This document shows positions 17,468 through 39,463 of a stretch of DNA of 64,000 nucleotides, one piece after another (the stretch's first letter is position 1; every line of letters begins with the position of its first letter). The notes beneath the pieces are model-generated. The model saw only the letters and a list, made by a program, of their open reading frames with translations, did no database searches and was not told the DNA's origin. The DNA comes from Candidatus Bathyarchaeota archaeon (GTDB lineage: Archaea > Thermoproteota > Bathyarchaeia > Bathyarchaeales > Bathycorpusculaceae). The DNA is taken from NCBI GenBank assembly GCA_963739305.1, contig CAVTZU010000008.1, positions 16,879 through 80,878 on the forward strand. Reading direction: 5' to 3'. The translations under genes and the position numbers were made by a program.

Positions 17468-17915
17468 CTGAAGGTCTCCTTTCAACTTGTGGTCGTAAAT
17501 GCTTTCTCATCGTATTTAGTTTTCTGCTTTTTTCTAAGTCCTTGTCAGGAGCATAAAGAAATCATGCACAGAATTCTTTGAGAATTTTAGCTTCAAGATG
17601 TTACGAACAAAATTCGTTTATTCAGAGTTCCAAACGCGCGCGAAAGAAACAAAAGAGAAGATAAGCAGCAGTTTCGTCGCACCGTGATTCCTTTGCTAGG
17701 ACTCATTAGTTCTTGAATGCAAAATCAAATAATAGTAGGCGGTGCGATGGCTTTCAAACATTGATACACCTACGCTTGAGCAAATTGTTCTCCCAGTATT
17801 GACAATCGTTGCCCTGGTTGCAGCGGTCGCTTTGATTGAGTCACCGAAGACGACAAAGCTCTCGCACGCGTTGGATAGCCGACACATCAAAGTAGACAAA
17901 AAACGGGAAGCCACG

Positions 17916-18089
17916 CTAAAGCATGCGCGTGGGCTTCTTCTTCAGAGTCTTTTTCCATTCTTCGAACAGACTCCAATATATACTGTCGACAGTCTCGTCT
18001 TGCAAGTTCCCCTCAGCAATGAACTTCTCGACGAAGTCATTCAGCTCCAAAGAGTTCCTGCACTTCCTGACATCACTAATATTCAGCAC
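17916..18089 (-). CDS. Small hypothetical protein, 57 aa (not in ORF track)
   Basis: AAGGAG upstream; MLNISDVRKCRNSLELNDFVEKFIAEGNLQDETVDSIYWSLFEEWKKTLKKKPTRML; directly downstream of the wHTH gene. Confidence 0.5.
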   Translation of the reverse strand: MLNISDVRKCRNSLELNDFVEKFIAEGNLQDETVDSIYWSLFEEWKKTLKKKPTRML

Positions 18090-18123
18090 AAGACCGACTC
18101 CTTGATTCTTTCCTCGGTTCTGG

Positions 18124-18423
18124 CTAAACTAGGAAGGGTGAAGAAATTCCAGAATCAAGTAGCAGAGCCATCCTCTTGAATAAGTCTAGAAACTCCTGGC
18201 CAGTTTCTGTTCTCTGATACGTCACTTTTCCTGCACAGGCACCCATCCGAACAAGATTACTTGAAGTCATAAGATTCAGGTACTCCCCTGATTGTGCGGT
18301 GCTCATATTACAGTGGGACATGATGTTGGACTTTCCTACTGGTATTCGCAGCTGCCTCAGAATCTCCGCAATGATCTGTAATCTGCTGCGGTTTCCGTCA
18401 GATACCTTTCTCAGATTTAACAC
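18124..18423 (-). CDS. Archaeal winged-helix transcriptional regulator
   Basis: RSRLQIIAEIL..KSNIMSHCNMS..YLNLM..YQRTETGQEFL pattern. Confidence 0.8.
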   Translation of the reverse strand: MLNLRKVSDGNRSRLQIIAEILRQLRIPVGKSNIMSHCNMSTAQSGEYLNLMTSSNLVRMGACAGKVTYQRTETGQEFLDLFKRMALLLDSGISSPFLV

Positions 18424-19183
18424 GTATAACACGATCCATAAAAAAGCAGGCCAGTTCTTATGCAAATGATGTTGCGATAAGTCGGTAGCACGCCTTTCCT
18501 GCAATATAGATTATCAGCCCGGCTTATAAGGGTGAGAGGCCAAAAGTCGCTTTTTTACGTTTTCTTCTTTTTCTTCGCGCCACTGAGGCACGCGCCATTC
18601 AGTTGCTGGGTCAACTTCATGAAAGGAAGGGCAAAATGGCTATGTTCGCTTATCATTGGGAAGGCTGAGACCGCAAAAGCGGGGATGTCTTGTTCTATGT
18701 AGATATGCGTTAGAAATATCGTGGAAACACGCTGGACTTGGCGTTCAGACGAGCGCGCGCTAAGCGAAGAGAAAGGGACTTGTAGAAAATAAAAATGTTT
18801 TCGTAAGCTACGGACGCCTTCACCTATGGAGACGCACTGGCTAGAAGAGTCCGTGCTTCTTCTAGTCTCCTCACTTTCTCAACGTTACTCTTTCCATGTT
18901 TCCATTTTCCTCGACTTTTCATTCTTTTCAAAAATCGTTCTTTTTTCGCCTGCTTCTTCTTCGATCGTTTCAAACAAATCTTCCTTCCAAGAATCAAATA
19001 GTAACAACAAACAAGGCTTATAACCTTCACCTAATGCGAACTGAATTCTGTGGAGTGCAAGCGTGGTAAAAAGAAAGAGGGATTGGCGGGGGAACTGCGA
19101 AATACAATTGCGTAAATCTCGACTCGAAATCTGGATTCTGACTTCAGAATTGCCTTATCCAAGGAGCGTGAAAAAATATGGAT

Positions 19184-20339
19184 ATGGCAAAAATGGAAGA
19201 CTGGCTTTCGGCTCTTCCAAGCAAATACACGAGAAAGACTTACAAAAGCGGAATCAAGAAGTTTGAGGAGTTTTACGGCAAACCTATCGAGAGTCTTGTT
19301 GATCTCAGTGACGAAGAACTGGGACACAGCATTGACAAATTCTATTCGTGGCTGAAGCAAGAGAAAGGGCATCCTCAAAACACTTGCCGAAACTATGTTA
19401 ACTGTCCGATTCAATGTATGAAATACTTCAGCAAAAATCCGAAATATAAGAAGAGTCTAGGCATTTACCGAAGCACCATAACCACTAGAGACCACCCGGT
19501 AGAAATCTCGGAGATTCAAAAGATGGCGAGTGTTGCCGATTTGAGAGAGCAGATTCTCTCGGAGGCCTATCTTTTGGGTTTGAGGGTTCGTGATGTAGCT
19601 TGCTAGCTAGCAAGCAGCGAACCCCCAATCCCAGTTATGATAAATTGCGTAAAAGAGGAAACCGTGGCCCATGCCTTCATAAACGAAGAATTCAAAGCTC
19701 TCCTAGACAAGTATCTGCCAACGATTGACAAGGAAAACCCGTATCTGTTTCAGAGCAAGAACTGGCAAGGAATCAAGAGAAAAGGCATTCAAAAGCTGAG
19801 TTCAAGGCAAATCTCAAACATCTTGAATGATTTGATTAATAGGGCTGGCATACAGAAGAATGCCGTGTTCGCCTGGCACACGGGAAGAAAGCTCTTTATG
19901 ACAACCGCAACGGAACTAGGCGCTCCCACCTTAGGCTTCAAAACTGATGGTTGGCAAGTCAATTAAAGCCAGCGACGAAACTTACAACATCCGAACAAGG
20001 TTGAAGCCAGACTTCATCAAAATAAGCAACGTATTGAAGTTGTTCCTGAAAGCTACTAAGGACACTGGAAAAGTCAAGAACTTGGAGAACACGATATTTG
20101 AGTTGTAGAGGCATATCACAGTGCTAACGACGACCTTAGAAGTGTTGCAAAAGGGATTCGGGGTGACTGAAGAGGCTGTGAGCGAGTTGCTCAAACCCCT
20201 ACTACAGAAGAAACTTCTGGAGAGAACAGTAAACGCTGGAACGACTGGCCTAGGCTTTCTGCAAGTGGAAAACGTGAACAAAATGTCACCCAAGAAGATA
20301 GTCTCCAGATACCTTGAGATTACAAAAGGCAAACGATGA
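19184..20339 (+). pseudogene. Degenerate tyrosine recombinase/integrase
   Basis: SAM-like N-domain (TRKTYKSGIKKF), LGLRVRD, WHTGRK (HxxR), KLMVGK..DETY; TAG stops at 19604, 19932, 20106 and a frameshift near 19925. Confidence 0.85.
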
Positions 20340-20480
20340 AAAGTTGCCACAACTACGGGAAACGTGACAGCTAATCCCTTTTCTTTCTAGGTCTAAGTCT
20401 TGGCGCGCGCGCTAAATCAAAAAGGTGACAAAACGTCTATATATATTAGGTATCTGAGCTTGAACTAGCGGAGATCGAAT

Positions 20481-20669
20481 ATGAAACCTGAACATTATAA
20501 ACCGATAAGGAAAACAAAGCCCAAACGAAAAGGCAAGATTAGTGCGCGCAAAAGTCGAATGCTTGCAGTGGCTCAAAAATGGAAACCCATTACTTCTCCA
20601 CGATTGCGTGAAGCTTACTCTACTAAAATAGAATGGGTAAGGAAGCTAATTCCCAAATTGAAAAACTAA
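20481..20669 (+). CDS. Small basic hypothetical protein
   Basis: TATATATA upstream, GGAG before the ATG, K/R-rich 62 aa. Confidence 0.45.
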   Translation: MKPEHYKPIRKTKPKRKGKISARKSRMLAVAQKWKPITSPRLREAYSTKIEWVRKLIPKLKN

Positions 20670-20809
20670 GCAGAAGCGCCGGAAGAAAAAGAAGAGCCCA
20701 GATAAGCCGCACGCGCTTTTTACGTTTCGCTTAATTATCCTAATGTTGTTCTTTTCCTGACAACTATCGGAAGTACCAAATCGTGAATTACTATTCTGCT
20801 CATTTGAAA

Positions 20810-21037
20810 TCACTCCATCTTGACTTTAAGAATCCATTTTCCTTTAGGATTGCCGTCTAAATCGACTCCTCTGCCCTTCAACACTTTGAATTCGCCCTGT
20901 TTTAAATCCAAATTTTGCATAGCGAATTCTGTTGCTTGTTTAATCGTACAGAATCCAGCTGGTTTCTTTGCCTCAGTCTCTGTAAATCCCCATTCTGGTG
21001 GAACTAAACTGCCTATTGGCAAGACTTTCAATCTCAT
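20810..21037 (-). CDS. Small hypothetical protein
   Basis: GAGGAGG Shine-Dalgarno upstream; 75-aa protein-like ORF. Confidence 0.55.
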   Translation of the reverse strand: MRLKVLPIGSLVPPEWGFTETEAKKPAGFCTIKQATEFAMQNLDLKQGEFKVLKGRGVDLDGNPKGKWILKVKME

Positions 21038-21294
21038 TCCTCTTTTACCTCCTCAAGGGAAATAGCAGAACAGTCTATGAATTGACAGTCTCGTCACTTC
21101 ATATCTTCGCTCCAGCTAGTATAGAATGGAAATCGCTGTTAAAGCTTGCTTATCCCTCTAAGAAATCTCCTTCAAGCCAATTTTATGTATCAGAGAAAAA
21201 TAGGGAATGTGCGGGAAGCGTCTATACACTGGCAACATAAGAACCCTTATAAAGGGTATTTAAGCATCCGCTACGCTATAAGAAGTGGTTTCTA

Positions 21295-21855
21295 ATGCCG
21301 AAGACTAAAGCCATAGTAAACATTCAAAACGTTGTTGCCACTGCCACCTTAAACCAGAAAGTTGACTTAAACGCCGTCGTGAAGAGTTATCCTGGAGTTG
21401 AATACCACCCAGAGGAATTTCCAGGACTTGTGTTTAGGCTTAAGAGACCGAAGACCGCCACGTTGATTTTCAACTCTGGAAAAATGGTTTGTACAGGCGC
21501 CAAATCAGAGCAGGAAGCGCGCAGGGCTGTTATGACAGTTGTTAAAGAGCTGAAGAAGGGCGGAATAATCATCATCAGTAGGCCGGATTTGAAGGTTGTG
21601 AACATGGTTGCTTCTGCAAGCTTGGGCGGAAGGGTAGACTTGGAACTGGCAGTGAGCGCGCTTGGAAAAAGCATGTATGAGCCGGAGCAGTTTCCAGGAT
21701 TGATCTACAGGATGGACGAGCCTAAGGTGGTTATACTGATATTCGCAAGCGGAAACCTTGTCTGCACCGGAGCGAAGAAAGAACAGGACGTTTATGACTC
21801 AGTGCACAAGCTTCACGCAAGGTTGGAGGAACTAAACCTCATATTCTACGAATAA
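21295..21855 (+). CDS. tbp: TATA-box binding protein
   Basis: Two TBP repeats: NVVAT..YHPEEFPGLVFR..LIFNSGKMVCTGAK and YEPEQFPGLIYR..LIFASGNLVCTGAK. Confidence 0.97.
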   Translation: MPKTKAIVNIQNVVATATLNQKVDLNAVVKSYPGVEYHPEEFPGLVFRLKRPKTATLIFNSGKMVCTGAKSEQEARRAVMTVVKELKKGGIIIISRPDLKVVNMVASASLGGRVDLELAVSALGKSMYEPEQFPGLIYRMDEPKVVILIFASGNLVCTGAKKEQDVYDSVHKLHARLEELNLIFYE

Positions 21856-21961
21856 AAACTTCATAGTTAATCGCCTATCGCCTTCGCGCGTGCGGGGGGC
21901 TTTGACCTAAACTGTTAAATTCTGTTGGTTGTTATCCGAAGAATAAGATCTGGAGGTCGTT

Positions 21962-22288
21962 ATGCCGATTAAGCGCATGCGCTCTGAGTTAGATTGTGTG
22001 GCCGAGGTTTTGAAGAGACATATGGACTGTATTGACCGATCCAAGGATTTTATTGAAGCTGATAAGACTGAAAGGTTACCGGATAAGGTTTGGATACTTG
22101 TTGAATTGCGATATGACGCAGCCAGAGTATTAACAATCGATAGAATATTTGAAAGCAAAGAGACAGAGCCAAATACTATGCCTTCCGGTAATAGATTCAA
22201 GAATATGACAGAGAATTACAGTAATCACTCGTATGTGAAGGGACTGCTGAAGTTGATCAATGAAGATATTCAGAAAACTTGCAAGTAA
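21962..22288 (+). CDS. Hypothetical protein
   Basis: GGAGG RBS; 108-aa ORF without recognised motif. Confidence 0.5.
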   Translation: MPIKRMRSELDCVAEVLKRHMDCIDRSKDFIEADKTERLPDKVWILVELRYDAARVLTIDRIFESKETEPNTMPSGNRFKNMTENYSNHSYVKGLLKLINEDIQKTCK

Positions 22289-22363
22289 TCGCATGTTTTC
22301 GAGCCCTTCTTTTTCTATTATGGGCAAATCGCTGCATGATGCAGCTTGATTTTGTCGAGAGAC

Positions 22364-22567
22364 TCAGAATTCCGTAAGGTCGCCGTTGTCGATGACGATG
22401 AAAACTTGGTCATGCTTCTCAAATTGCTCGTAGCCTAGAATTCTACGCGGAAAATGTTGACCAAAATAGTGAAAGGCAAAGGGTAAACCGCCTTTCGAGA
22501 AGGATAATACGACAAGCTTCGCGTTCAAGGATTCATACAGATTTGTTTGTTTCATCATTTCAACCAT
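22364..22567 (-). CDS. Small hypothetical protein downstream of tfb
   Basis: Co-oriented, 18 nt after the tfb stop; protein-like composition. Confidence 0.45.
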   Translation of the reverse strand: MVEMMKQTNLYESLNAKLVVLSFSKGGLPFAFHYFGQHFPRRILGYEQFEKHDQVFIVIDNGDLTEF

Positions 22568-22585
22568 CCATTTTTGTTAATCCCT

Positions 22586-23590
22586 CTAGGGTTCGCGTAA
22601 TTCTAGCTTCAGCTGCCTTTTCAGGGTCTTGTAGCGGTTTCTCACCGTGACCTCAGTGACGCCTGCAGCTTCAGCGATGTACTTCTGTGTCTTCTTCTCG
22701 TTGTTCTGCAAACAAGCAATGTACAGTGATGCAGCAGCCAATCCCATAGGGTCCTTTCCGGCAGCAGCCCGCTTCTTTCTGGCTTCTCGAAGAATCTGTA
22801 TAGCAATTCCCTGGGTCTTGCCCGAAATGCCTGTTCTTTCAGCGATTTTTGAAACGTACGTAAGGGGGTCAGCGATGGGCATGTGCATATCAAGTTCACG
22901 TAGCAAAAGCCGGTAGCAACGGGCAACGTCCTTTTTATCGACTAGGCTTGCCTCTGCGATTTCATGAAGTGCTCTTGGGGTTCCACTTCCGCGGCAAGCC
23001 GCATAAACCGCAGCAGCCGTTATGGCTGCGATAGACCTTCCGCGGACTAAGCTCTTATCTAAAGCTTTACGGTAAATAACCGCAGCCTTCTCTTTGATTG
23101 GCCGTGGAATGTAGACCCTGTCTGACAAGCGGTCAAGTTCAGCCATTGCCTGGGCTAGGTTTCTGTCAACTGAAGAATGCGCCCTAGAACGGATCTGCCA
23201 TTTTCTCAGGCGCCACATCAGCAGGCGCGTTGATAATGGAAGTTTTCTTCCGAAGGCGTCACGGTCAATCTGGCCTATGGCCGTTGACAAGCCTTTATCA
23301 TGCACAGAATAAGATGTTGGCATCCCAACACGGCTTCTTGACGCTTTCTCTTCTTGGGTAAATGCACGCCATTCGGGTCCTTTATCCATCATTTGCCCGT
23401 ATAAGACGAGCCCACAGTCGCCGCAAACGGTCTCACCCGTATCATAGTCATGGATAAGGTTTACACTACCACATTCCGGACACTTATCCCGCAACGTTTG
23501 CTGAGACCGTGTCACTTTCTTTCTTTTTTCCATCTTTTCGGTCTCTATCATATGGAGTAGGCTCATCACAGGACAACCTTCACAAAACAC
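22586..23590 (-). CDS. tfb: Transcription initiation factor IIB (true start probably later, e.g. 23533)
   Basis: CPECG..CGDCG Zn ribbon, GPEWRAF B-reader, two cyclin repeats, AGVTEVTVRNRYK. Confidence 0.97.
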   Translation of the reverse strand: MFCEGCPVMSLLHMIETEKMEKRKKVTRSQQTLRDKCPECGSVNLIHDYDTGETVCGDCGLVLYGQMMDKGPEWRAFTQEEKASRSRVGMPTSYSVHDKGLSTAIGQIDRDAFGRKLPLSTRLLMWRLRKWQIRSRAHSSVDRNLAQAMAELDRLSDRVYIPRPIKEKAAVIYRKALDKSLVRGRSIAAITAAAVYAACRGSGTPRALHEIAEASLVDKKDVARCYRLLLRELDMHMPIADPLTYVSKIAERTGISGKTQGIAIQILREARKKRAAAGKDPMGLAAASLYIACLQNNEKKTQKYIAEAAGVTEVTVRNRYKTLKRQLKLELREP

Positions 23591-23698
23591 AATTCCTCAT
23601 ATTACGTATCAGAATTTGAGCGATTTGATTGTTAGTCCGCAAAGCGCGCGTTAGAAAGAAGGATACTAAGGGTTGATGCTTTGTTCGGCAGGGTTTTC

Positions 23699-23986
23699 CT
23701 ACTCTTTTGCAAGGGTTATTTCCATTGTTGAAACCATCCGTGCTCTGTTTTCGCCTTCTCTTGCTGGCATCTCCTCTGTTCCTATCGCGACTTTGCTCAC
23801 TTTTAAGTCTTTTAGGAAGCGATTTCTGGTTATTTCAGCTGCGTCAACTGCCGTGGTGATCGCTTGTCCTCGGGCTTTCAAGGTTATTTCTTTAGCATTG
23901 GATGCCGATAGGCTTGTAATAATCGCTAGAACATAGCTCATTACTGGTTTACTTCCAATGAAAACAATTCCCGATTTTTCCGACAT
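23699..23986 (-). CDS. albA: DNA/RNA-binding protein Alba
   Basis: IGSKPVMSYVLA, KARGQAITTAVDAAE, VSTMEITL. Confidence 0.95.
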   Translation of the reverse strand: MSEKSGIVFIGSKPVMSYVLAIITSLSASNAKEITLKARGQAITTAVDAAEITRNRFLKDLKVSKVAIGTEEMPAREGENRARMVSTMEITLAKE

Positions 23987-24421
23987 TTCCATCAATCCTT
24001 TCATCATTAATTGTAACGTACAACGTTGCTGTGTTCTTCTCGTCCTTCAACAACAGAACGCTACTGACCTATACTACACACTTTCTTATAAAGCGATTAA
24101 ACAGCAGAGCAGCCTGAGGATATTTTCACGCGGCTCCCTTATCCTAGATTCCTATCTTAGACACAGCATTCACTTTGCATTTAGGTGATAGGTCATAATT
24201 AGGTGCAGAAAACTCGTATATGCGCGCGCTAACCCCCGCTCCTTTGCCGCCATCCACACATAGCGCGCTAGGGCGTTGCTTAATTCAGATTTTAATAGTT
24301 TTTATTCGGTTTCATGAGTAGTTGGCAGCTTTTGGTTGAACAATCCTCCCATCAGAGGCATCTCAATACGCACCGCGCGCGCTAACTTTACTCCTGCACC
24401 TTTCCCCAAAAGGAAAGAGAA

Positions 24422-24495
24422 GGGTTTCCAACGATTCAACCCTGTAGCAAACTGACAGGCACCAGTTGCATTTGTTGGATTGAACCTGGAAACCC
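24422..24495 (-). ncRNA. Candidate small hairpin RNA
   Basis: TATA-like TTTTATTTA ~22 nt upstream; three stacked stems closed by GGGUUUCCA/UGGAAACCC; pyrimidine tract immediately 3'. Confidence 0.4.
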
Positions 24496-24527
24496 ATCCA
24501 AGACTGAAGGATGCCTAAATAAAAGTG

Positions 24528-24770
24528 TTAGCGCGCTGGCTTGTCCCTAAAATGGTTAAAAATGATATTTATTCCTTTTTTGTGGTTTGGGGGCGGTTTC
24601 GAGGCGCACTTGCTGCTAGCTTTCACGACCACGCCTTGGAGCTCCAAGCGGGCTAGGTGAAGCCTCAACGTGTCATGGGAAACCCCCACTTCCCGCAGGA
24701 TCTGCCATAGCTTCCATGATTTACCATCCCTCAAAATGCCAGGATTTGCCTATCAAACAAGGTCAAATTG
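24528..24770 (-). pseudogene. Winged-helix protein remnant
   Basis: FDRQILA / LRDGK..QILREVGVSHDTLRLHLARLELQGVVVK; frameshifted and truncated. Confidence 0.5.
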
Positions 24771-24815
24771 AACCCAAAAAGGCAAAGAAGAATTAAGACC
24801 AATTTCGGGCGCGCG

Positions 24816-25385: not shown

Positions 25386-25463
25386 GTTAAGCCAGCAACG
25401 CTAGCTTGGCATCATTTTTCTTCCATTTTTCACATTTTCTAATTACGCTCAACACGAATAGAG

Positions 25464-27004: not shown

Positions 27005-27039
27005 GTCCTGCTAGCCAAAGAAAGGCGATTGAGGAATAG

Positions 27040-30679: not shown

Positions 30680-32503
30680 ATGGAAATGCGGAAGAGAACA
30701 TTGACCATAATTGGCATTCTAGCTATCACCATGATGGTAACAGTATATTTCGCTTCTAATTCCTTATTGTTGAATAGCTTCAAAGAACTGGAAGAAACCA
30801 ATGTATATCAAAACCTTGGCAGATTTCAAAGCGCTCTGTCCAGTGATATCTCTGATTTGTACAGCAAGTCAGGCGATTGGGCAGTATGGGACGACACCTA
30901 CGCATTCATTGTTGCCCCAAACGACAATTACATTAACTCAAATGTTGTGGATTCAGCTTTCACCACTTTGAAGATCAACATTCTGTTGTTCGTAAACCTC
31001 TCGGGTCAGATTGTGTGCGGCAAAGCCTACGACTTGCATAACCTGACGGAAGTCCCAGTTCCAGAGAGTCTGGAAAGAGAACTCGCTTCTCATGATGTTC
31101 TTTGGCGCTTTTCCACAACTGACAGAAGGATTGACGGGATCATTCTTCTGCCAGAAAATCCCTTGTTGATTTGCTCAAGGCCCATTTTGACAAGCCAAGG
31201 TAACGGACCTGTTCATGGAGCACTGATCATGGCACGCTACTTGGACTCTGATGAAATCGAACAACTAGCCCGAACGACGGATTTGTCTCTCACATTACAG
31301 CGTTATAATGATTCGCCAGTGCTTCCAGATTTCCAAAACGCACTCTCAGCATTTGCGAATAACGAAACAGGCTTCTGCCAACCCTTGAACGCAGATTATG
31401 TTGCCGGATATTCTTTAATAAAAGATGTTTATGGAAATCCCATTCTCACTTCAAGGATTGACATGCCTAGAGACATTTACAAACAAGGACTAAGTACGAT
31501 CAACTACTTCCTCCTGTCGCTCATTGGTTTGACCGTTGTTTTCGTAGCAGCCATTATGTTACTCATGGAAAGAACAGTTTTGTCTCGGGTTGTCAGACTT
31601 ACCAAGGCTGTGCGGAACATAGGAAGAAATAGAGATCTCAAAACTCGTGTGCCAACCGATGGAAATGACGAGTTGGCAGGTCTGGCAAAGTCGATAAACA
31701 GAATGTTGACCGACATCGAAGACAAGTCTTCTAGATTGCGAAAAGCAGAGCATCTTGCAGCCATCGGCCAGGTGGCAGCGATGGTTGGACACGACTTGCG
31801 AAATCCCCTGACAGGAATCAGTGGGGCCACGTACTATTTGAAGACAAAGTTGGAAGCAAAAATGGATCCCAAATCAAAGGAAATGGTTGAAACCATTCAG
31901 AGGGCAATCGCTCACTCGGATAGAATCATAACTGACCTCTTGAAGTGCGCAGAGGAGATGAAGCTTGACATATCCGAAACCGAACCAAGACATATCCTGA
32001 GCGAAGTCCTTTCCCGTGTGAAGGTTCCAAGCAATGTTAGAGTACTGGACAAGACACAAGAAACACTAAGAATCAAATGTGATCAAGAAAAAATGAAAAC
32101 CGCTTTCGCCAAAGTAGTAGAAAACGCGTTTGACGCGATGCCGAACGGCGGAACGTTGACGGTGGAGAGCGCAAGAGCGAAGGAAGGTGTTACAGTCAGT
32201 TTCTCTGACACGGGCGTCGGCATATCAAGTGAGGTCATGACAAAACTCTGGTCACCTTTTTTCACAACCAAAGCTAGTGGAATGGGCCTCGGACTGGCAA
32301 TTTGCAAACGCATGGTAGACGCACACGGAGGCACAATCTTCGCGGAAAGCTCCGCAGGAAAAGGCTCCACGTTCACCATTACACTTCCGACAGATCCAAG
32401 AATCAAGCAAGAAGATTCCGAAAACTTCATAGCTATTCCAGAACATCCACTATCAACGCTAGAAAAACAGCAAAACAATGAGAAAGCCGCAAAAGAATCA
32501 TAA
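30680..32503 (+). CDS. CHASE4-HAMP sensor histidine kinase
   Basis: DWAVWDDTYAF (CHASE4), DELAGLAKSINRM (HAMP), HDLRNPL, NAFDAM, DTGVGI, GMGLGL. Confidence 0.92.
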   Translation: MEMRKRTLTIIGILAITMMVTVYFASNSLLLNSFKELEETNVYQNLGRFQSALSSDISDLYSKSGDWAVWDDTYAFIVAPNDNYINSNVVDSAFTTLKINILLFVNLSGQIVCGKAYDLHNLTEVPVPESLERELASHDVLWRFSTTDRRIDGIILLPENPLLICSRPILTSQGNGPVHGALIMARYLDSDEIEQLARTTDLSLTLQRYNDSPVLPDFQNALSAFANNETGFCQPLNADYVAGYSLIKDVYGNPILTSRIDMPRDIYKQGLSTINYFLLSLIGLTVVFVAAIMLLMERTVLSRVVRLTKAVRNIGRNRDLKTRVPTDGNDELAGLAKSINRMLTDIEDKSSRLRKAEHLAAIGQVAAMVGHDLRNPLTGISGATYYLKTKLEAKMDPKSKEMVETIQRAIAHSDRIITDLLKCAEEMKLDISETEPRHILSEVLSRVKVPSNVRVLDKTQETLRIKCDQEKMKTAFAKVVENAFDAMPNGGTLTVESARAKEGVTVSFSDTGVGISSEVMTKLWSPFFTTKASGMGLGLAICKRMVDAHGGTIFAESSAGKGSTFTITLPTDPRIKQEDSENFIAIPEHPLSTLEKQQNNEKAAKES

Positions 32504-32862
32504 CGCGATGATGAGCGCGCATGTTCCTAAACTAGTTGCGAAGCATCGTATGCTTCTCGTTTTGCTTGGTTTGGGTCGTTGACTGCAGCTTGATCAGTGC
32601 GTGCGCGAAAACCGCCTCAGAACAACGACCGACAGCATCGAAGTTCTATTGCAGGGAACTTGAATCTTGCAGTTGAATCTCACTCATGCTTTGAACGGCT
32701 CGTATGTTGTCTAGGACTCACAAATGCACGCAATGATCGAGGTCATTGTGCATGACAAATCGGAAACGATTCTGGAAGACTAATCGTTGAGACAGAAACA
32801 GCGCGCGCGATAGATAGAAGAATGCTCTACTGGGGTTCTTCATTGTTCGATGTGTTTGGTCT

Positions 32863-33066
32863 TCATTGACTTGTGCTTTTGCTCTTTCTCGTGGAGGCTA
32901 AGGCGAAGCCGAAAACTAATCCAAATGATGCTCCAAGTGCAATGCCTAAGGCAAGATTGTCCATTAATATTCCAAATACGACATCTAGTCCGACTCCCAT
33001 TGCAAGTCCAATTCCGGTGCCATAGGTCACATCTTTCTTGGATTCTGACCGATTATCTGTAGTCAA
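32863..33066 (-). CDS. Small glycine-zipper membrane protein
   Basis: GTGIGLAMGVG..NLALGIALGASFG. Confidence 0.55.
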   Translation of the reverse strand: MTTDNRSESKKDVTYGTGIGLAMGVGLDVVFGILMDNLALGIALGASFGLVFGFALASTRKSKSTSQ

Positions 33067-33414
33067 GTTTGTTCCTCAATTTGCTAATGAATCAAAGAGG
33101 ATAGAAAAAGAAGAATAGATTTATGCCTGAAAGTCTAATGCACAAACTGTGCCTGATGCGAGAAATGGTTTCATCACCGCCACAGTAGGAGTGCTTAATG
33201 GTATCATACTATATCGCGCGGCAGATGTCTCCCGACATGAGAACTTGATCGATCTGTGCCATATGTCATGGGATATTAGTTTCGACTCTGAATTACAAAG
33301 CTTATAAATCTACACAATCAATTCGTAAGCATTTAATCTTTCAAACGCAAACTAAGAAGCTAGTATTAGATAGTCAGTGTATGTTTGAGGTTGCGTAAGG
33401 AGTAGATGATCTGA

Positions 33415-36400
33415 ATGGCAGAATCTATCGTTGAGTCTTCTGCAGAAACAGTTTTGAATGTAGCCATGGCAGGAACGATCAAAGTCTTACACGTTGATGA
33501 TGACCAGGTATGCCTGAAGGTTGCGAAACAATGCTTGGAAATGCAGGGTGAAATTTACGTAGACACCGTGTCTTCAGTCAATGAAGCCTCTGAAAAACTG
33601 AAGAAGACGGATTATGATGCTGTTGTTTGTGATTACCAGATGCCTGGTAAAGATGGGCTTGAATTTCTAAAAGAACTGCGAGCAAATGGAAACAATATTC
33701 CATTCATTGTTTTTACTGGAAAAGGCAGAGAGGAAATAGCCGTAAAAGCACTGAACTTGGGTGCTTCGGGATACTTCGACAAACATGGTGAACCAGAAAC
33801 AGTCTATGGCGAATTGGCACATGGCATAAGAACTACCGTGGAACAGAAGAAAGCCGAGGAGAACCTGTTTGCTGAAAGAGATAAGCTTGAAACAGTTACA
33901 AGAAGCATTGGTGCTGGGCTTATCATGATTTCGAAAGATTACCGTACTCTTTGGGCGAATGACGTTCTCAAACGAATATTCGGCGATCTAGAGGGCAAAA
34001 CCTGCTACTCAACCTACAATCATAGAAAGAACATTTGTCCAAAATGTGGAGTTCAAGAGATTTTTGAAACTGGAAAATCCAAAGTTGTTCACGAACAAGT
34101 GAGAAAGGATGCTGACGGAAAAATTATCTGGTCAGAGGTCACGGCTACTCCGATTAAGGACACAGATGGAAATGTCACAGCGGTGCTGGAACTGGTCATA
34201 CCCATCACTCAACGTAAAAGGGCAGAGGAGGAGCTTCACGATTCTGAGGAAAAATATAGAAGTCTGGTTGAGCTGGCTCCCGACGGCATAGTAGCTGTGA
34301 ATACAGAAGGCATAATCACATCGGCCAACCGTAGTTTCCTGACTTTAGTAGGCTATGACTCTGAAGAAATCGTTGGCAAACCATTCACGGAGTTGAAATC
34401 CAGTCGAGTGGAAGACATTCCAAAATTCCAGAGCATGTTCAAGTCTCTGATGAAGGGAGAATCACCTTCACCAGTTGAATTTCTTTATGTTCGGAGAGAT
34501 GGAACGAGTCGATGGGCAGAAGTGCATCCTAGTTTATTGACTAAAGATGGCAATCCTGTGGGAGCTCAAGTAATCATGAGAGATGTCACTGAACGAAAGA
34601 ACGCAGAGGAAAAACTGAGGTCTTTGAATGAATTCAATGAAAATGTAATTGATTCAATCGCTGACTCTCTTCTGGTAATCGATCCTAACGACTATAGAAT
34701 TACAGGCTTCAATGAAGCAGCATTGAAACGATTAATGTTAAGAAAAGAAGACCTAATGGGGAAGACTTGCTATGAAACAACTCATCATCGCTCCACACCT
34801 TGTGAACCTCCTCTTCATATTTGTCCAATTCAGGAAGTGTTAAAGACTGGCAAAACCGTTACAGTTGAACACACGCATTTCGATAAAGGCAACAACGAAA
34901 TATTCGTGGAAGTTTCTGCCCATCCTGTAAGAAACCAAGAAGGAAACACAGTCCAACTGGTTTACATCTCCAGGGACATAACAGAACGCAGTGAGTCTGA
35001 GGAGAAATTTAGGGTTCTTGCAGAACAGTCGCCAAATATGATTTTTATGAACAAGATGGGAAAGGTATTTTATGCAAATAAAAAATGCGAAGAAATTGTT
35101 GGATACCGAACGGAAGAGCTCTGCTCTCCTGATTTTAAGTTCCTCACCTTGATTGCCCCAGAATCTATAGATCAAGTAAAGTCAACTTTCAGAAGACATA
35201 TGGAAGGCGAATACGTCACTCCATACGAATGTACGCTTCTCACAAAAGAAGGAAAGAGAATAACCGCAATAATTGCGACAAATTTGATAACCTACAAGGG
35301 AGAAAAAACTATTCTTGGAATGATAACTGACATCACAGGACGCAAAAAAGCGGAGGAAGAAAAAAGCAGGCTTCTTCATAACCTTCATGAGCGTGTAAAG
35401 GAGCTCAACTGTTTTTATGGTATGTCAAGGCTTTTTGAGAAATCTGACATTTCGTTAGATGATGCATTGCAAAAAACGGCTGACCTGCTTCCCCCTGCTG
35501 TGCAATATCCAGACATTACATGTGCAAGAATAGTTGTTGAGAATCGAGAGTTTTCGACGAAAAACTTCAAGGAGACCAGATGGAAGCTGCAGGCTGACAT
35601 TGAAGTATTTGGAAAAAAGGTTGGCTCTGTGGAAGTCGGTTACCTTGAAGAACGGCCTACAATTGCTGAAGGTCCCTTTCCGAAAGAAGAAAGATTCCTA
35701 ATAGATGCCGTTGCAGAGAGATTGGGAAGAATCACTGAACGCAAGAAAACAGAAAAGATGCTGCAGGAGAGCGAAGAAAGATTTAGAGCAATCTTTGAGG
35801 GAGCAAACGATGGCATTCTTGCTGCCGATGCTAAAACAAGAAGATTCTCTTTTGCTAATCCCGAATTTGTGAAATGACAGGCTATTCATTAGAAGAATTG
35901 CTCAAATTAGGTGTAGGTGACATTAATCCTAAGAAAGATTTGCCTTATGTAATTGACAGTTTTGAAAAGCAAAGGCATGGGAAAGTGGCTCTTTCGAAGG
36001 ACATTCCTGTTCTGAGAAAAGATGGAAGAGTGGTTTATTGCGATGTTAGTTCTAAATCCCTGAAAATTGGAAGCCAAGAATACTTGGTAGGCATATTCAG
36101 AGACGTCACTGAAAGCAAAAAAGCGGAGGAGAAGTTAAGACAAAATAGCGATAGAATTGAAATGATGAATGAAAAGTTACGTGTGGTTGGAGGCTTGTCT
36201 AGGCATGATGTTAATAACAAGCTTTCAGCGGTGACTGGATATGCGTATTTGCTGAAGAAGAAGCATGCTGATCAGGCAGACATCGTAGAGGGATTGGGCA
36301 TGATGGAGCAGGCTGTTAAAGAGGTTAGAAAGATTTTTGATTTCGCCAAAATATACGAGAAGTTGGGCGTTGAAGAGTTAACCTATGTTGATGTGGAGAA

Positions 36401-36830
36401 GACCTTAGATGAGACTGTGGCTCTTTTTTCTGGCTTAACCATTAAGGTGGTTAATGGATGTCATGGATTAACCGTGCTGGCGGATTCGTTTCTTAGGCAA
36501 CTATTCTACAATTTCATTGACAACACTAGAAAATACGGCGGGAAAGCCACAGCGGTAAGGGTGTATTATGAAAAAGCAGAGTCGGGTGAGTTGCGTCTGG
36601 TCTATGAGGATGACGGCGTAGGCATCTCCGCAGAGAACAAATTGAAACTCTTCACTGAGGGCTTTAGCACTGGGGGTAGCACAGGCTTTGGCTTGTTCTT
36701 GATCAGGAAGATGATGGAGGTTTACGGCTGGCAAATCCAAGAAACAGGTGAACCGGGTAAAGGAGCCAAATTCATCATAACGATACCCAAAGCAAACCTA
36801 AATGGAAAAGAAAACTATCAACTCTCTTGA
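33415..36830 (+). CDS. Hybrid REC-multi-PAS sensor histidine kinase, frameshift near 35862
   Basis: VLHVDDD, DYQMPGKDG, FTGKGREE; several PAS/PAC repeats; RHDVNNKL, DDGVGI, GFGLFL; adding one base gives ANPxICEMTGYS. Confidence 0.9.
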
Positions 36831-37159
36831 TCGATCGATCAGTCAGGTTTCTGTAGTGCGGCTGGCTTCGGCGAAAAGATTCTTAACAAAGGGACCCATA
36901 CCTTTTCCATGTTGCGGCTGGCTGTAGTCTTTTCATGCATTGTCCTGTGATTTCTTCTCCATAGTATTCTGTCATTTCTTTGCCATTCTTCTCTATACTA
37001 GTACAGGCACCATCTACTAATACTCCTTGTGCCGAGAATCGAAGATACGGTCGGCTTGTCGTGTTTGTTCTACGGCGCGCGCGGTAACCTCAAAGTAAAC
37101 GAAAGATTCTTCTAGGAGTACATCGGTTCTTCTCAGTAGAGGGTTATTCAGGAGGAGTC

Positions 37160-38253
37160 GTGCATATGAAGCATATTAGCAGAAAGGTTGTGGCTGCTGC
37201 TCTTGTGATGCTTGCGGGACTGTTGATCCTGTTAGGTCTCCCAATATCTAAAGTTCAATCGCAATTACCTGTAGATGTAGCAATAACCAGCATTACGAAT
37301 GTTGATGGCATGGTTGTATACTTCTCTGGAATGAATAAGACAAGTAACACAAACATTACAATTGACGTAAGAGTCGAAAGACTAGACAGCCAACCCATTC
37401 CATTAGTATTGGTCAACCTGACTTTGACAAGGACAGACAGCGTTACCTCTGAAAACACGACGCTGTACAACACAACTATCCTTGTTCCCCCACTTGGAAC
37501 AGTGAAACTGCCTTTGTATTGGAATGAGACGCTAGGCAAACTCTCACCCGGCACTTACGACGTGCACAGTTTTGCCGACGTGATTTCTGACGGCACCATC
37601 TACGATTCGAACATGACGAACAACTTCATAAACGCAGGCAGAGTCAGAGTCTTTGTGGTTAAGGAAGACCTGGACGGAGACGGAATCTTGGAGTGAAAGA
37701 TTCGATGTTGATGGCGAGTGCATTTGGATGGCACGGACCGCCCGGTTCGATTCCACAAGATCTGATGCCCGACGGAGTGGTTGACTCGTTTGACGTACAA
37801 ATGCTGTTGAGGATGTTTGGTTGGACGATTCAGAATCCTATACCACCAAAACCCGTCACGTGGACACTGACCATTACAACGTACCGGGGAAACTACACTG
37901 TCGAAGTCTTCAGTGACTACATTGTGTATTCACAGTATAGTTTCAACAAGACCCTGAAGCAGCTGAGTTTCAACATAACGTCCAGCATCGACGGATTCTG
38001 CAACGTTTCAATCCCGAAAACCTTGATGTCCGGGGCTTTCACTGTGTACTTGGACGATGCGCCCACACCGTCCGTCATAACGTGGAATGCAACACATTAT
38101 TTTGTATATTTCAATATAACAGGGCTTTCTCAAAAGGTCAGAATAGTGTCCGAGTACGCTGAGGAAATATTGGGCGACATAAACCACGATGGAGTCGTCG
38201 ACATTTACGACGCCATCATCTTAGCGGACCACTTTGGTTGGACAGATCCCTGA
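37160..38253 (+). CDS. Secreted protein with Ig/CARDB-like domain and dockerin-like EF-hand repeats, frameshift near 37690
   Basis: Signal peptide; DVAITSI..NN CARDB-like; DLDGDG, DLMPDGVVDSFD, GDINHDGVVDIYDAIILA..FG. Confidence 0.75.
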
Positions 38254-38344
38254 CAAGCCTCGGCAAACCATCAATCTCCCCCTCTTTTTCTGAGCTTCAG
38301 GCCAACAACGTTCTTTATTTTCTAGTCGACACAAGAAACAAGTG

Positions 38345-38366
38345 TGGGGGTAAACTTCACCCCAAA
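38345..38366. repeat. Degenerate copy of the 22-bp site
   Basis: TGGGGGTAAACTTCACCCCAAA; 17/22 to 30020-30041. Confidence 0.6.
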
Positions 38367-38421
38367 CCAACCAACTTATTTCAGAGATAGAGATATCAGA
38401 TAACTGAAGGAGGCAGGATGG

Positions 38422-38865
38422 TTGAGCCAAACGGAAGACGACAAACTTCTAGCACCTTGTGGTCTCTACTGTGGGGCTTGCATAGATTATCTGGTATACA
38501 AGAGCTGTCATGGTTGTGGCTGTGATTGCGGGGAATGTGCTGCTTCGGCGCACCATGGAACCTGTGATATCTACAAATGTTGGGCCGAGCAGAAGGGTCA
38601 TGAAACCTGCAGCGATTGCGATGAATTTCCTTGCTCAAAACTCATCCAGTTCTGCCATAATCCCGTTTGGCTGCACCATTTGCCAGTCATAGAAAATCTC
38701 CGAAGACAGAAAGCCAGAGGAGCCAAGAAATGGTTGGAAGAACAGAAACAAGCTTGGAGTAATGAATGGTATCTTCAACGTTGGCTTTGGCTGCAAAAAG
38801 AATGCGAGAACAGACGAAAACAATCTCTGGAAGAATCGAAAAATATGCTCTCCAGAAAAAAGTAG
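38422..38865 (+). CDS. DUF3795-family cysteine-rich protein
   Basis: APCGLYCGAC..CHGC..CDIYKC..TCSDCDEFPC..IENL. Confidence 0.8.
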   Translation: MSQTEDDKLLAPCGLYCGACIDYLVYKSCHGCGCDCGECAASAHHGTCDIYKCWAEQKGHETCSDCDEFPCSKLIQFCHNPVWLHHLPVIENLRRQKARGAKKWLEEQKQAWSNEWYLQRWLWLQKECENRRKQSLEESKNMLSRKK

Positions 38866-38887
38866 CAGGCGCTAATCTTGTTGTTGT

Positions 38888-38909
38888 TGGAATAAGACTT
38901 TACCCCAAC
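38888..38909. repeat. Degenerate copy of the 22-bp site
   Basis: TGGAATAAGACTTTACCCCAAC; 18/22 to 30020-30041. Confidence 0.7.
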
Positions 38910-38918
38910 AATAAAACT

Positions 38919-39237
38919 CTACTTGGTGGCTAATACCTTCCAGTAGTTTGGCTTGTCTTTCATTCTGGTGACCTTCTTGTTGAGGAAGTTATGCAGCAAT
39001 CTGAAAAGCTCAGATTTTGTAAAGAAATGATGTAATTCTCCGAAGCACTTCTCTTCGAAAGCCTCCGTAATCCAAGAGGTATTGTCTTCCAACATTTTAC
39101 CAGTACCGAATCTTGGGTCTGTCACCGAGGCTAGATTTGCGAGAAACCAACCGTTCTTACTGAGGATTCTGAAAATCTCGTTCACAGTTGCAACAATTTC
39201 CTTCTTGAATGCATGATGTATGACGCTGACGAATATG
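38919..39237 (-). pseudogene. 5'-truncated class I SAM methyltransferase remnant
   Basis: VIHHA..EIFRILSKNG..DPRFGTG..HHFFTKSEL; motif I half is absent. Confidence 0.65.
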
Positions 39238-39463
39238 TGCGCTGCGTGTTGCTGCTTTTTCCTTCAATGAAGAGTCTCGAGGCTTCAAGCAGGCTCATGT
39301 TAGGTCTCCGCGTGCACTAAAAGATGACAATGATTCCTCTTCAAGGAAAAAGAAAAAGGATGGGATTGTTGCGGGAGACTTCGCCACTCTTTCATACCAA
39401 AAGCCTTAAGTGCGGTCTGTTTGTTAAAGTTGAATCGTCGAAAAAATAGGATGTTGAAAAAGC

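Follow-up and report, generated by a model that had tools for sequence, protein, structure and literature searches.

The palindrome GCGCGCGC, a core of constant 8-bp length flanked symmetrically by TA (full form TAGCGCGCGCTA), is a lineage-specific, genus-wide interspersed repeat in a genus of Bathyarchaeia, and it is most concentrated where synteny is lost. We consider the chances about even that this genus-specific palindrome is a joint for the loss, gain and exchange of modules. Its frequent presence at sites of gene gain, loss and swapping hints at an undescribed route of gene shuffling.

The window is a 64-kb stretch of G000, a Bathyarchaeia MAG from peat (2.317 Mb, contamination 7.8%). 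A tract is defined here as a maximal alternating-GC run of at least 8 nt; genes are our own crude ORF predictions combined with Pfam, and the intergenic/coding split used throughout rests on them. A first-pass annotation had listed 11 tracts in the window, and we recover all 11 starts exactly, together with the 3′ tails quoted for them: 10 lie at 17.6-37.1 kb and one at 51168, where fewer than one is expected (Table 1). With overlaps counted, the core GCGCGCGC matches 11 times in the window (expected, 0.74) and CGCGCGCG 8 times (expected, 0.66); neither count was attained in any of 100 shuffles. Runs of 7 nt occur at 23644, 53211 and 57791, the first of which has 2-nt length variants among peat contigs. 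All 10 island tracts are intergenic by our ORF calls and Pfam, which bears out the reading of a non-random motif at the boundaries of unrelated genes, and the copy at 24809 overlaps a stop codon, while that at 28712 begins 15 nt past one.

Table 1. Tracts, modules and variable segments in the window (window coordinates)
Feature	Position	Strand	Context
34-kb variable region	5316..39395	+	
CGCGCGCG tract	17635..17642		no TA flank; between SnoaL-like gene (17129-17485, -) and weak ORF
GCGCGCGC plus TA	18753..18760		in place of ~21 nt conserved in three congeners
5.7-kb segment	19089..24807	+	missing from G001 and G002
GCGCGCGCGC plus TA	20403..20412		left end of 240-815 nt module repeated in congeners
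GCGCGCG (7 nt) plus TTAG	23644..23650		immediately upstream of TFB paralogue start (23590, -)
GCGCGCGC plus TA	24222..24229		upstream of Alba paralogue (23699-24007, -)
164-nt foldback module	24374..24537		ends CGCGCGCGC-TAAC and GTTA-GCGCGC
GCGCGCGC plus TA	24809..24816		overlaps L35Ae stop codon (gene 24816-25136, -); right junction of 5.7-kb insert
CGCGCGCGCG	28712..28721		15 nt beyond stop of MBL-fold gene (27783-28697, +)
CGCGCGCGC plus TA	30364..30372		between 29388-29954 (-) and CHASE4 histidine kinase gene (30680-32503, +)
GCGCGCGCG	32801..32809		~300 nt beyond histidine kinase gene's stop
GCGCGCGCG	37075..37083		between kinase gene 35874-36830 and ORF 37160-37696
GCGCGCGC, solitary	51168..51175		outside cluster

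The statement that only one more tract lies elsewhere holds within the window but not for the genome, where 351 tracts form 52 clusters plus singletons and GCGCGCGC is the most frequent 8-mer (359 copies). Alternating-GC runs in G000 drop ~4.5-fold per step down to 398 at 6 nt and then number 150, 202, 96 and 48 at 7-10 nt, with 5 at 11 nt or more; each of the other five dinucleotide alternations has at most 65 runs of 8 nt. The same histogram bump (86, 34, 20) is seen in 800 kb of G001, a one-contig congener of 2.35 Mb. The flanks mirror each other (n = 347), with T at +1 in 202 and A at +2 in 152 on the right and A at -1 in 196 and T at -2 in 145 on the left. Past ~2-3 nt on either side these counts show no conservation, and they do not support the likeness to the XerC arm of dif that had been proposed.

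Our comparison set comprised 10 congeners, 8 genomes from the family's other genera and 12 from the order's other families. All 10 congeners have an excess of the motif (29-464 copies each), and near-complete genomes of the genus (~2.3 Mb) carry ~130-460 copies, ~80% of them intergenic. Copy numbers are 0-14 in the family's other genera and 0-6 in the order's other families, except for G024 with 53; 19 of the 20 genomes outside the genus lack an excess. The idea of a feature particular to the island fails on these numbers, and the window island is one among at least 52 motif clusters rather than a special platform.

The motif keeps to spacers: 276 of 351 tracts in G000 (79%) are intergenic, compared with 18% of the DNA, and 113 of 140 are so in G001. 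Density is highest in convergent spacers (0.93 per kb), with 0.61 in tandem and 0.53 in divergent ones. Within the G001 sample, spacers syntenic with G000 have 0.35 motifs per kb (5 of 202 spacers, and none of the 39 that measure 100-300 nt), broken-synteny core spacers 0.66, core-accessory spacers 0.89 and accessory-accessory spacers 0.94. Conserved and non-conserved spacers differ just ~2.5-fold in density, and the lower value for core spacers may stem from constraint, not from their history. The motif position is common to G000 and G001 in one of six motif-bearing syntenic spacers. Of 1112 merged repeat-HSP ends, 4.3% have a tract no more than 10 nt away (0.9% in shifted controls); for the 464 intergenic ends the share is 8.4% (2.8% in controls). 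Of 72 contig ends, 7 fall within 100 nt of a tract, where 1.0 is expected. Because only ~4-8% of repeat ends and ~12-17% of non-syntenic spacers bear the motif, it is not an obligatory joint. Gaps of 50-300 nt between motifs number 49 against 11.7 expected. Among 232 inter-motif segments of up to 5 kb, 165 leave every predicted gene uncut, and 57 of those contain a single complete gene each. Elsewhere (G000:C13:75292-76002), short non-coding modules, each matching another locus, are joined into a chain by the motif.

In the window, the 5.7-kb segment contains decayed integrase pieces (19178-20339) together with TBP, TFB and Alba paralogues. At the empty site of G001 and G002, the counterpart of 18591-19088 lies ~115 nt from that of 24808-27419, and in each of two runs one peat contig connects 19085 with 24812. 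On its right side the insert joins at the motif at 24809; the joint on the left has no motif. The foldback module at 24374 has copies 91-96% identical in G000:C13, G001, G005 and G008. At the 34-kb region, G002 has the counterpart of 949-5302 ~160 nt away from 39396 onward, ~0.5-0.7 kb intervene in G008 and G005 (only 949-4276 aligned) and 2.6-4 kb in G004 and G009, and G001 carries a different 16-kb segment with 6 motifs and 3 integrase genes. No motif is present at the outer boundaries of this region or at the empty sites of G002 and G008. Homology among distant congeners often stops at gene ends, the motif's usual place. Because the motif sits at gene ends anyway, ends of homology are partly trivial as evidence for joints in the window.

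Strains within G000, which we infer from near-identical contigs, supply two clean events at the motif and some one-sided ones. A 4.2-kb segment, C2:5783-9981, made of two cassettes divided by a third motif, is missing from C3; TAGCGCGCGC stands at both ends of the segment in C2 and as a single copy in C3, and the flanks are 98.5% and 96.5% identical (control pairs, 25%). In the second event, two NosD-like genes (C13:153197-155183, 2 kb) are swapped for one STAND-ATPase gene (C17:2971-5851, 2.9 kb), with the left joint on the motif and homology restarting ~25 nt past the right motif. Microhomology-driven differential deletion from longer arrays accounts for both the indel and the replacement without insertion. 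One cassette recurs between species: the C2 cohesin/dockerin gene is found in G004:C14 at 87% identity (77% for the adjoining core gene), with TTAGCGCGCGC on both sides of that copy, and the rest of the 5-kb query has no match in G004:C14. The same contig pairs contain several other breakpoints without the motif, and an unrelated second palindromic repeat likewise bounds strain variants, a sign that breakpoints may be drawn to any palindrome that is abundant. Overall, the motif is enriched at accessory and non-syntenic junctions and strain variants break there, but several breakpoints lack it.

Segments bounded by two copies are seen present, absent, replaced or in another context, and they include single genes, gene pairs and one 164-nt non-coding module. 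In the mechanism that we propose, two copies of the palindrome would be points of DNA breakage and rejoining. Because the site reads the same on both strands, a joint could form between any pair of copies in either orientation, and it would regenerate the site. The DNA between two copies would then act as a deletable cassette, which might integrate anew at a different copy or be traded among species of the genus. We lean toward a sequence-specific protein that recognizes the 12-bp palindrome as a dimer, a candidate favored by the fixed core length, the symmetric flanks and the lineage-specific excess, while plain short-homology joining between copies could give the same products. The earlier interpretation of the motif as a recombination core finds partial support.

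The palindrome may also be a passive repeat, present for some other reason, with breakpoints falling on the commonest strong intergenic microhomology; it could be bound by a chromatin or regulatory protein specific to the genus, be an element prone to form Z-DNA, or be a neutral selfish insertion that relaxed spacers tolerate. We regard this account as rather unlikely, though with an appreciable chance of being right. A palindrome of 12 bp is what dimeric DNA-binding proteins typically recognize, but the scarcity of positions common to two species speaks against a conserved regulatory site, and the presence of the motif in convergent spacers against a promoter element. The distribution, densest in convergent spacers with tandem close to divergent, resembles that of tolerated insertions, and the small density difference between conserved and non-conserved spacers points the same way; an excess in the youngest, accessory DNA would, however, require fast production of perfect 8-mers. 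No integrase, transposase or methylase family linked to the motif was found. A passive repeat gains from the finding that no recombination enzyme tracks the motif, from the second palindrome that bounds variants and from the sufficiency of deletion for the two clean variants. It fits less well with the copy at 18753, which arose by an indel replacing 21 nt kept in G001, G002 and G003, or with the cassette that keeps its flanking motifs in two species and two contexts.

Copies of the motif could instead be transposon ends, target-site duplications or excision footprints of a TA-inserting cut-and-paste element, an improbable origin despite the TA on both sides of the core, the one motif copy that arose with a small deletion and the foldback at 24374-24537, whose terminal inverted repeat consists of the motif plus TAAC. 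Across 59 short modules, inverted-repeat matching of the 10 nt inside the motifs is 2.6/10, against 2.8/10 for shuffled partners, and TA at motif pairs is found 34 times on the inner side versus 33 on the outer. Profile searches of G000 gave no hit for Y1 transposase, serine recombinase, TnpB, DDE_3 or rve and two for DDE_Tnp_1, which is weak evidence, as MAGs can lose IS copies.

There is a similarly small chance that methyltransferase or repair bias maintains the motif as a HIP1-like palindrome, or that it is a restriction-modification site whose cutting and re-ligation shuffles DNA. The core is an 8-bp palindrome and the commonest 8-mer, its top interior single-base variants are C-to-T products (GTGCGCGC, 71; GCGTGCGC, 66), and self-complementary sticky ends would rejoin any two sites. 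However, PF00145 (m5C methylase) has one hit each in G002 and G008 and none in G000, G001 or 6 other congeners. Strong PF01555 hits occur in genera poor in the motif, whereas G002, G005 and G009, all rich in it, have none; N4/N6 methylases are not confined to the genus. The intergenic bias is also unlike HIP1. A genus DNA-uptake signal riding on exchanged DNA, like the DUS of Neisseria or the USS of Pasteurellaceae, is very unlikely. The motif is genus-specific, intergenic, orientation-free and present in hundreds of copies, and several segments are 87-97% alike between species, where core genes have a median protein identity of 71%; yet it is denser in accessory DNA, the reverse of known signals, and breakpoints at the motif would not be accounted for.

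The first-pass annotation saw an oriented recombination core private to the island, on which an integrase would act in the manner of integrons or dif modules. This reading is already largely refuted, and we now give it hardly any credence. The asymmetric tail it described is real in the window, where GCGCGCG[CT]TA[AG] occurs 7 times on the + strand and never on the - strand, and the decayed integrase pieces and the three integrase genes of the G001 island at the same locus agree with it. Genome-wide, however, the motif is a symmetric palindrome whose tail lies on the + strand 60 times and on the - strand 62 times, and neighboring sites do not share an orientation (29 same versus 24, p = 0.29). 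The window's run of six same-side TA flanks is the longest in the genome, for which about two runs of six are expected by chance on a rough estimate. The 351 copies in 52 clusters also argue against this reading, as does the distance from tyrosine recombinase genes, which are no closer to the motif than random points are (median 3.3 versus 4.1 kb, P = 0.34). Their number does not track motif abundance among 31 genomes, and motif-poor relatives have as many integrases as motif-rich ones. Of the integron- or dif-like array, the single-gene cassette bracketed in two species stands; attC, dif arms and terminal repeats were not found at the motif, which has no arms beyond 12 bp. An assembly or base-calling artefact is a negligible prospect, for although contig ends are over-represented near the motif, 11 assemblies of the genus (one-contig G001 and short-read assemblies included) agree in excess, flanks and intergenic bias, the variant junctions are inside contigs, and the tracts should be far below assembly k-mer length.

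Several known systems resemble a palindromic joint for modules. Integron cassettes have attC sites of 55-140 bp with paired cores. They share with our arrays promoter-poor single-gene units of unrelated function, a short recombination element just past the stop codon, and cassettes that are present or absent between strains and recur in different contexts, whereas here there is only a 12-bp palindrome without attC, no integrase or attI platform beside the arrays, and cassettes lie in both orientations in 52 clusters and many single sites. The pdif sites of Acinetobacter plasmids (XerC/D-dif) are 28 bp long, with two 11-bp arms and a 6-bp spacer; they likewise bound discrete modules found in different contexts with no recombinase inside, but nothing is conserved here beyond ~12 bp. 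Neisseria intergenic mosaic elements, whose repeat units are flanked by 20-bp dRS3 inverted repeats, likewise string short non-coding modules together through a single short palindromic repeat; they too are lineage-specific, occur in hundreds of copies and are linked to rearrangement and insertion. Our motif differs in sequence, length (8-12 versus 20 bp) and archaeal host, shows no link to a filamentous-phage integrase and brackets whole genes too. REP/BIME sequences, 20-40-nt imperfect hairpins associated with RAYT transposases, are similarly intergenic, clustered, densest in convergent spacers and present in hundreds of copies, but our core is unable to fold on itself and a search of G000 gave no Y1 transposase. 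HIP1 (GCGATCGC) of cyanobacteria is another lineage-specific, GC-rich 8-bp palindrome and the most abundant octamer of its genome; it is spread across coding and non-coding DNA and tied to methyltransferases, whereas 79% of our copies are intergenic and the methylase searches turned up no cognate enzyme. DUS and USS are, like the motif, short, genus-specific over-represented words found mostly between genes. Known uptake signals reach their highest density in core genes and are sparse in islands, whereas the palindrome described here is enriched in accessory rather than core DNA and marks structural breakpoints.

The alternating-GC tracts that the first-pass annotation had listed in the window match exactly the maximal runs of at least 8 nt that we recomputed (table below), and two octamers occur there 11 and 8 times versus 0.74 and 0.66 expected from dinucleotide-preserving shuffles. 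The assembly of the source MAG, G000 (2.317 Mb, 36 contigs, 97% complete, contamination 7.8%), contains 351 such tracts; their core palindrome, GCGCGCGC, is its top-ranking 8-mer with 359 copies, a count slightly inflated, like all copy counts in G000, by mixed close strains. The run-length histogram of alternating GC drops ∼4.5-fold per step, reaching 398 runs at 6 nt, and then shows a bump of 150, 202, 96, and 48 runs at 7, 8, 9, and 10 nt, with only 5 runs of at least 11 nt. None of the other five dinucleotide alternations exceeds 65 runs of 8 nt. This pattern marks a discrete 8-bp core lengthened by chance and not a microsatellite. The motif is in excess in all 10 congeners searched (29-464 copies each), with 0-14 copies in eight same-family genomes of other genera and 0-6 in 12 genomes of other families of the order, except one (G024) with 53. 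The one-contig congener G001, for which our statements cover 800 kb plus a few other regions, shows over those 800 kb the same histogram bump, flanks, and intergenic bias as G000. At one contig end (C28:114547-125117), G+C is ∼70% over at least 500 nt versus 47% for the genome, and several tracts follow from composition alone; this stretch may be foreign or mis-binned DNA. A viral scan with TTAGCGCGCGCTAA returned 35 loci with no clear relation, where abundant tracts track high G+C.

The 3′ tail that had been taken to orient the motif did not keep that role genome-wide. The tailed pattern occurs 60 times on the plus strand and 62 times on the minus strand (mirror control, 15), with 102 of the 122 copies intergenic. 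Since neighbouring sites do not share orientation in G000 (29 same, 24 different, p = 0.29), the one-sided run of tails in the window is compatible with chance. Among 347 tracts of G000, the right flank has T at +1 in 202 and A at +2 in 152, the left flank has A at -1 in 196 and T at -2 in 145, and no signal extends past ∼3 nt on either side; the flanks are symmetric, and the conserved part is a 12-bp palindrome. The full form is TAGCGCGCGCTA, and most copies have TA on one side or none (71 right, 57 left, 30 both, and 192 neither among 350 tracts). That the TA flank is a TAG stop was rejected, as only 30 of 189 sides with a TA flank close an open frame of at least 50 codons versus 11% of control TAGs, and only 10 of 579 confident TAG-ending genes finish in TAGCGCGC. 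Motif 18753 stands in place of 21 nt conserved in three congeners (G001, G002, and G003), which indicates that a copy can arise by indel; in pairwise alignments of orthologous spacers between G000 and G001, divergence was too high to reveal motif origin.

By our home-made gene calls, on which the intergenic counts rest, 276 of the 351 tracts are fully intergenic, though 82% of G000 is coding. Density is 0.93 per kb in convergent spacers, 0.61 in tandem spacers, and 0.53 in divergent ones; within tandem spacers, 18 of 134 tracts lie at most 10 nt from the upstream stop and 2 at most 10 nt from the next start. The tracts are clustered, with 262 of 351 in 52 clusters that together make up 13% of G000, among which the window's cluster of 10 ranks fourth, and gaps of 50-300 nt number 49, four times the 11.7 expected. 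Segments of up to 5 kb between motifs cut no predicted gene in 165 of 232 cases, 57 of which hold exactly one whole gene and 43 none. A Pfam scan of 107 proteins (ORFs of at least 70 aa within 1.5 kb of a tract at nine loci outside the window) gave diverse cargo and no dominant mobility family. At C13:75292-76002, four abutting units of 140-210 nt match four other loci, and two of their joints fall on motifs.

The genes between tracts in the window are mutually unrelated by Pfam and ORF calls, and the locus is a hot spot. Where G000 holds 34 kb, the congener G002 has 949-5302 only ∼160 nt from 39396 onward; ∼0.5-0.7 kb intervenes in G008 and G005 (only 949-4276 aligned) and 2.6-4 kb in G004 and G009, and the 16 kb that G001 carries there is different DNA, containing six motifs and three integrase genes. 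No motif is present at the empty sites or outer borders of this locus. In G001 and G002, 18591-19088 sits ∼115 nt from 24808-27419, so that G000 carries a 5.7-kb insert, the right joint of which is on motif 24809. We also used Logan contigs from one peat study, possibly including the source sample, placed at 90% likeness and limited to two joints with long sides (uncovered parts and small joints set aside); one contig in each of two runs joins 19085 to 24812. A metagenome scan for close strains of this accessory region returned one locus at 78% identity, useless for strain-level joints. Searches of the window gave no tRNA and no Rfam match at gathering scores, nor any at E up to 1 in 24300-27800.

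The source is a Bathyarchaeia MAG: related loci matched by the window's TBP are labelled Bathyarchaeia, and the window has TBP, TFB, MttB, and corrinoid proteins. The TBP, TFB, and Alba paralogues travel jointly in a repeat a few kb long, in the window beside the decayed integrase pieces, with copies on C11, C13, C14, C17, and C25 of G000 and in three places in G001 at 77-96% identity within and between species; the segment may be an integrated element that brings basal transcription factors of its own. The 34-kb variable region includes the MttB-family methyltransferase and corrinoid-protein block; in G005 that block is elsewhere on the contig that bears the flanking core genes.

Features of the window (nt positions)
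Feature	Position	Strand
Maximal alternating-GC runs of at least 8 nt (starts)	17635, 18753, 20403, 24222, 24374, 24809, 28712, 30364, 32801, 37075, 51168	
MttB-family methyltransferase and corrinoid-protein block	12096-17068	
Decayed integrase pieces	19178-20339, between tracts	
TBP/TFB/Alba segment	21295-24007	
TBP, TFB, Alba paralogues	between tracts	
SnoaL-like protein; wHTH protein	between tracts	
L35Ae, aIF-1A, RPA-like OB protein	between tracts	
MBL-fold hydrolase	between tracts	
CHASE4 histidine kinase; PAS response regulator and its kinase	between tracts	
Foldback element, 164 nt	24374-24537	
∼75-nt repeat	27547-27625	
GGGGTAAAGTTTTATCCC	29360-29377	+
188-aa gene	29388-29954	
GGGGTAAAGTTTTATCCC	30021-30038	-
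GGGGTAAAGTTTTATCCC	38889-38906	-

Reciprocal best hits between the 800 kb of G001 and G000 comprise 478 of 818 ORFs at a median protein identity of 71%. In G001, spacers between orthologues adjacent in G000 too contain a motif in 5 of 202 cases (0.35 motifs per kb), those between core genes not adjacent any more in G000 in 16 of 129 (0.66 per kb), core-accessory spacers in 47 of 293 (0.89 per kb), and accessory-accessory spacers in 32 of 193 (0.94 per kb). None of the 39 conserved-synteny spacers of 100-300 nt in G001 has a motif, and of the six conserved spacers in which G000 or G001 has a motif, a single one has it in both. The motif is an interspersed 8-bp palindrome that is specific to the lineage and concentrates in plastic DNA.

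Contigs of the source MAG allow joints to be compared at short range. Many of the pairs in the groups C2/C3/C6, C7/C31, C13/C17, C16/C22, C23/C29/C35, and C12/C21/C1 share 95-99% identity along 2-10 kb. The MAG is therefore a mixture of close strains, and we take such near-identical pairs as strain variants in an assembly with 7.8% contamination. C2 and C3 differ by a 4.2-kb indel with flanks 98.5% and 96.5% identical versus 25% in unrelated controls; TAGCGCGCGC stands at both ends of the insert in C2 and as a single copy in C3. Two cassettes with a third motif between them make up the insert, one encoding a cohesin/dockerin protein and the other a solute-binding protein with a dockerin. The cohesin/dockerin cassette is also present in G004, at 87% identity against 77% for the neighbouring core gene, on a contig with no match to the rest of the 5-kb query; there, copies of TTAGCGCGCGC enclose it, 30 nt past the stop and 62 nt before the start. 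Where C13 has two NosD-like genes on a 2.0-kb segment, C17 has instead a 2.9-kb segment with one STAND ATPase; a motif stands at the left joint of this replacement, and homology restarts ∼25 nt beyond the right motif. Across G000, 4.3% of 1112 merged repeat-HSP ends lie at most 10 nt from a tract versus 0.9% in shifted controls (intergenic ends, 8.4% versus 2.8%). At least some motif copies lie exactly at the joints where segments are present, absent, or replaced. The expectation that breakpoints fall on the motif is borne out by the 4.2-kb indel, the left joint of the replacement, and motif 24809, but not by several other breakpoints in the same contig pairs or by the outer borders of the window locus.

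Other repeats occur in the same DNA. GGGGTAAAGTTTTATCCC, which has 52 matches in G000 on both strands at up to 3 mismatches, also bounds strain variants; GGTTT-like and AAACC-like repeats on either side extend it to a longer palindrome. The 188-aa gene lies between two inverted copies and is absent in peat contigs joining 29337 to ∼30015, and copies lie at the bounds of the 2.7 kb (C8:6357-9051) missing from C30. At C18:4171, C28:97084, and C17:15243, GGGGTAAAGTTTTATCCC abuts or is fused with GCGCGCGC. The ∼75-nt repeat, with core ...CTCAACATGG..TTTTGA...TCTAAAACACCCTACCCCCCGGCCTTTTTTTC, occurs 24-25 times in G000 (72-97% identity), without an Rfam match or a convincing consensus fold; two GCGCGCGC copies enclose it at C18:31163-31396. 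The foldback element ends in GCGCGCGC-TAAC and is an exception among the short modules. Each of its strands folds much better than shuffled sequence (z = -5.3 and -6.2). Its identity across species is 91-96% versus ∼71% for orthologous proteins, and G000 has two or more copies. A MITE-like element and a structured RNA gene are both possible identities for it. C32:5866-8457 is a 1.3-kb tandem duplication (97.8% identity), and C13:1456-3157 and C15:3424-5126 are copies of a 1.7-kb repeat (95.5% identity) that encodes a tyrosine recombinase and has ends without GCGCGCGC.

The first-pass annotation had envisaged an integron- or dif-module-like system, and a link of the motif to integrases was not upheld: the 12 tyrosine recombinases of G000 over the curated cut-off (PF00589) lie at a median of 3.3 kb from a motif versus 4.1 kb for random points (P = 0.34), and across 31 genomes recombinase counts do not track motif abundance, motif-poor relatives having as many. 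G000 has no match to Y1 transposase (PF01797), serine recombinase, TnpB, DDE_3, or rve, and two to DDE_Tnp_1.

We infer that motif copies recombine with one another, in which case the DNA between two copies would act as a cassette. We favour this over a purely passive repeat because the youngest DNA is enriched in the motif, because one copy was born by indel, and because a cassette keeps both of its motifs in another species and context. The rival reading, which we favour less and against which these same three observations count, is a purely passive repeat at which breakpoints form by microhomology deletion. Differential deletion from longer arrays would yield both the indel and the replacement; clean strain-level events are few, the same contig pairs have motif-free breakpoints, GGGGTAAAGTTTTATCCC bounds variants too, no enzyme family searched tracks the motif, and between distant congeners homology tends to stop at gene ends, where the motif sits regardless. 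For recombination between copies, the constant core length, the symmetry of the flanks, and the genus limits of the motif point to a putative dedicated joining protein, although none was found. It is rather unlikely, in our estimate, that all this amounts to an integrase-independent archaeal cassette system, in which a putative sequence-specific enzyme would cut and rejoin DNA at GCGCGCGC, inter-copy DNA would be excised, inverted, re-inserted, and passed between species, and accessory genes would form a shared, site-tagged pool.

If the copies are truly recombination joints, they would constitute a minimal cassette system with neither attC nor a linked integrase, and a handle on how accessory genomes are built in uncultured Bathyarchaeia, which are abundant in peat and sediments. 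Even if passive, the motif can serve as a practical marker for plastic regions and likely causes contig breaks in assemblies of the genus; 7 of 72 contig ends of G000 are within 100 nt of a tract versus 1.0 expected. A search of titles and abstract openings outside subscription journals gave no archaeal account of such a motif, nor any of an intergenic 8-bp palindrome that ranks first among the octamers of an archaeal genus and coincides with joints of gene gain, loss, and replacement.

Short interspersed palindromes are known in bacteria as REP, HIP1, dRS3, and uptake signals. A DNA uptake sequence is preferred by the uptake machinery and enriched in core DNA, whereas the bias of our motif is reversed (0.35 per kb in conserved-synteny versus 0.9 in accessory spacers). 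HIP1-like motifs are 8-bp palindromes far over expectation genome-wide, as ours is in G000, and have a cognate DNA methyltransferase wherever they are abundant; neither m5C methylases (PF00145, in 2 of 10 congeners, none in G000 or G001) nor N4/N6 methylases (PF01555, in motif-rich and motif-poor genomes alike) show a pattern fitting motif abundance. MITEs and cut-and-paste transposons have terminal inverted repeats and a target-site duplication outside; the 59 short modules have no inverted-repeat match inward of the motifs and no inner/outer TA bias, and the foldback family, with its GCGCGCGC-TAAC ends, is the one exception. An integron combines an IntI-type tyrosine recombinase and attI beside the array with attC sites, imperfect inverted repeats of ∼55-140 bp that carry a conserved core site at each end, and its cassettes are mostly co-oriented behind one promoter. 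By comparison, we found no attC-like repeat at the motif (347 flanks, 59 short modules) and no tyrosine recombinase near it beyond chance, and inter-motif genes lie on both strands (window, C2, C13, and C26). A Xer/dif site is 28 bp, two 11-bp recombinase arms and a 6-bp spacer; the motif conserves only its 12-bp palindrome. REP/BIME units are hairpin-forming, 20-40 nt long, and accompanied by a RAYT (Y1) transposase in the genome; the motif resembles them in being intergenic and clustered but has a core of 8-10 nt, in a 97% complete genome that gave no PF01797 hit. Neisseria NIME/dRS3 arrays consist of short repeat units with one short inverted-repeat element as separator, and the unit chain on C13 and the excess of 50-300-nt gaps are alike in architecture, by analogy and not homology. 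The motif fails the defining features of integron, dif-module, dRS3, and REP/BIME each in turn. By analogy, its outcome would be most like that of integron or dif-module cassettes, and its architecture like that of Neisseria dRS3 mosaics and REP/BIME.
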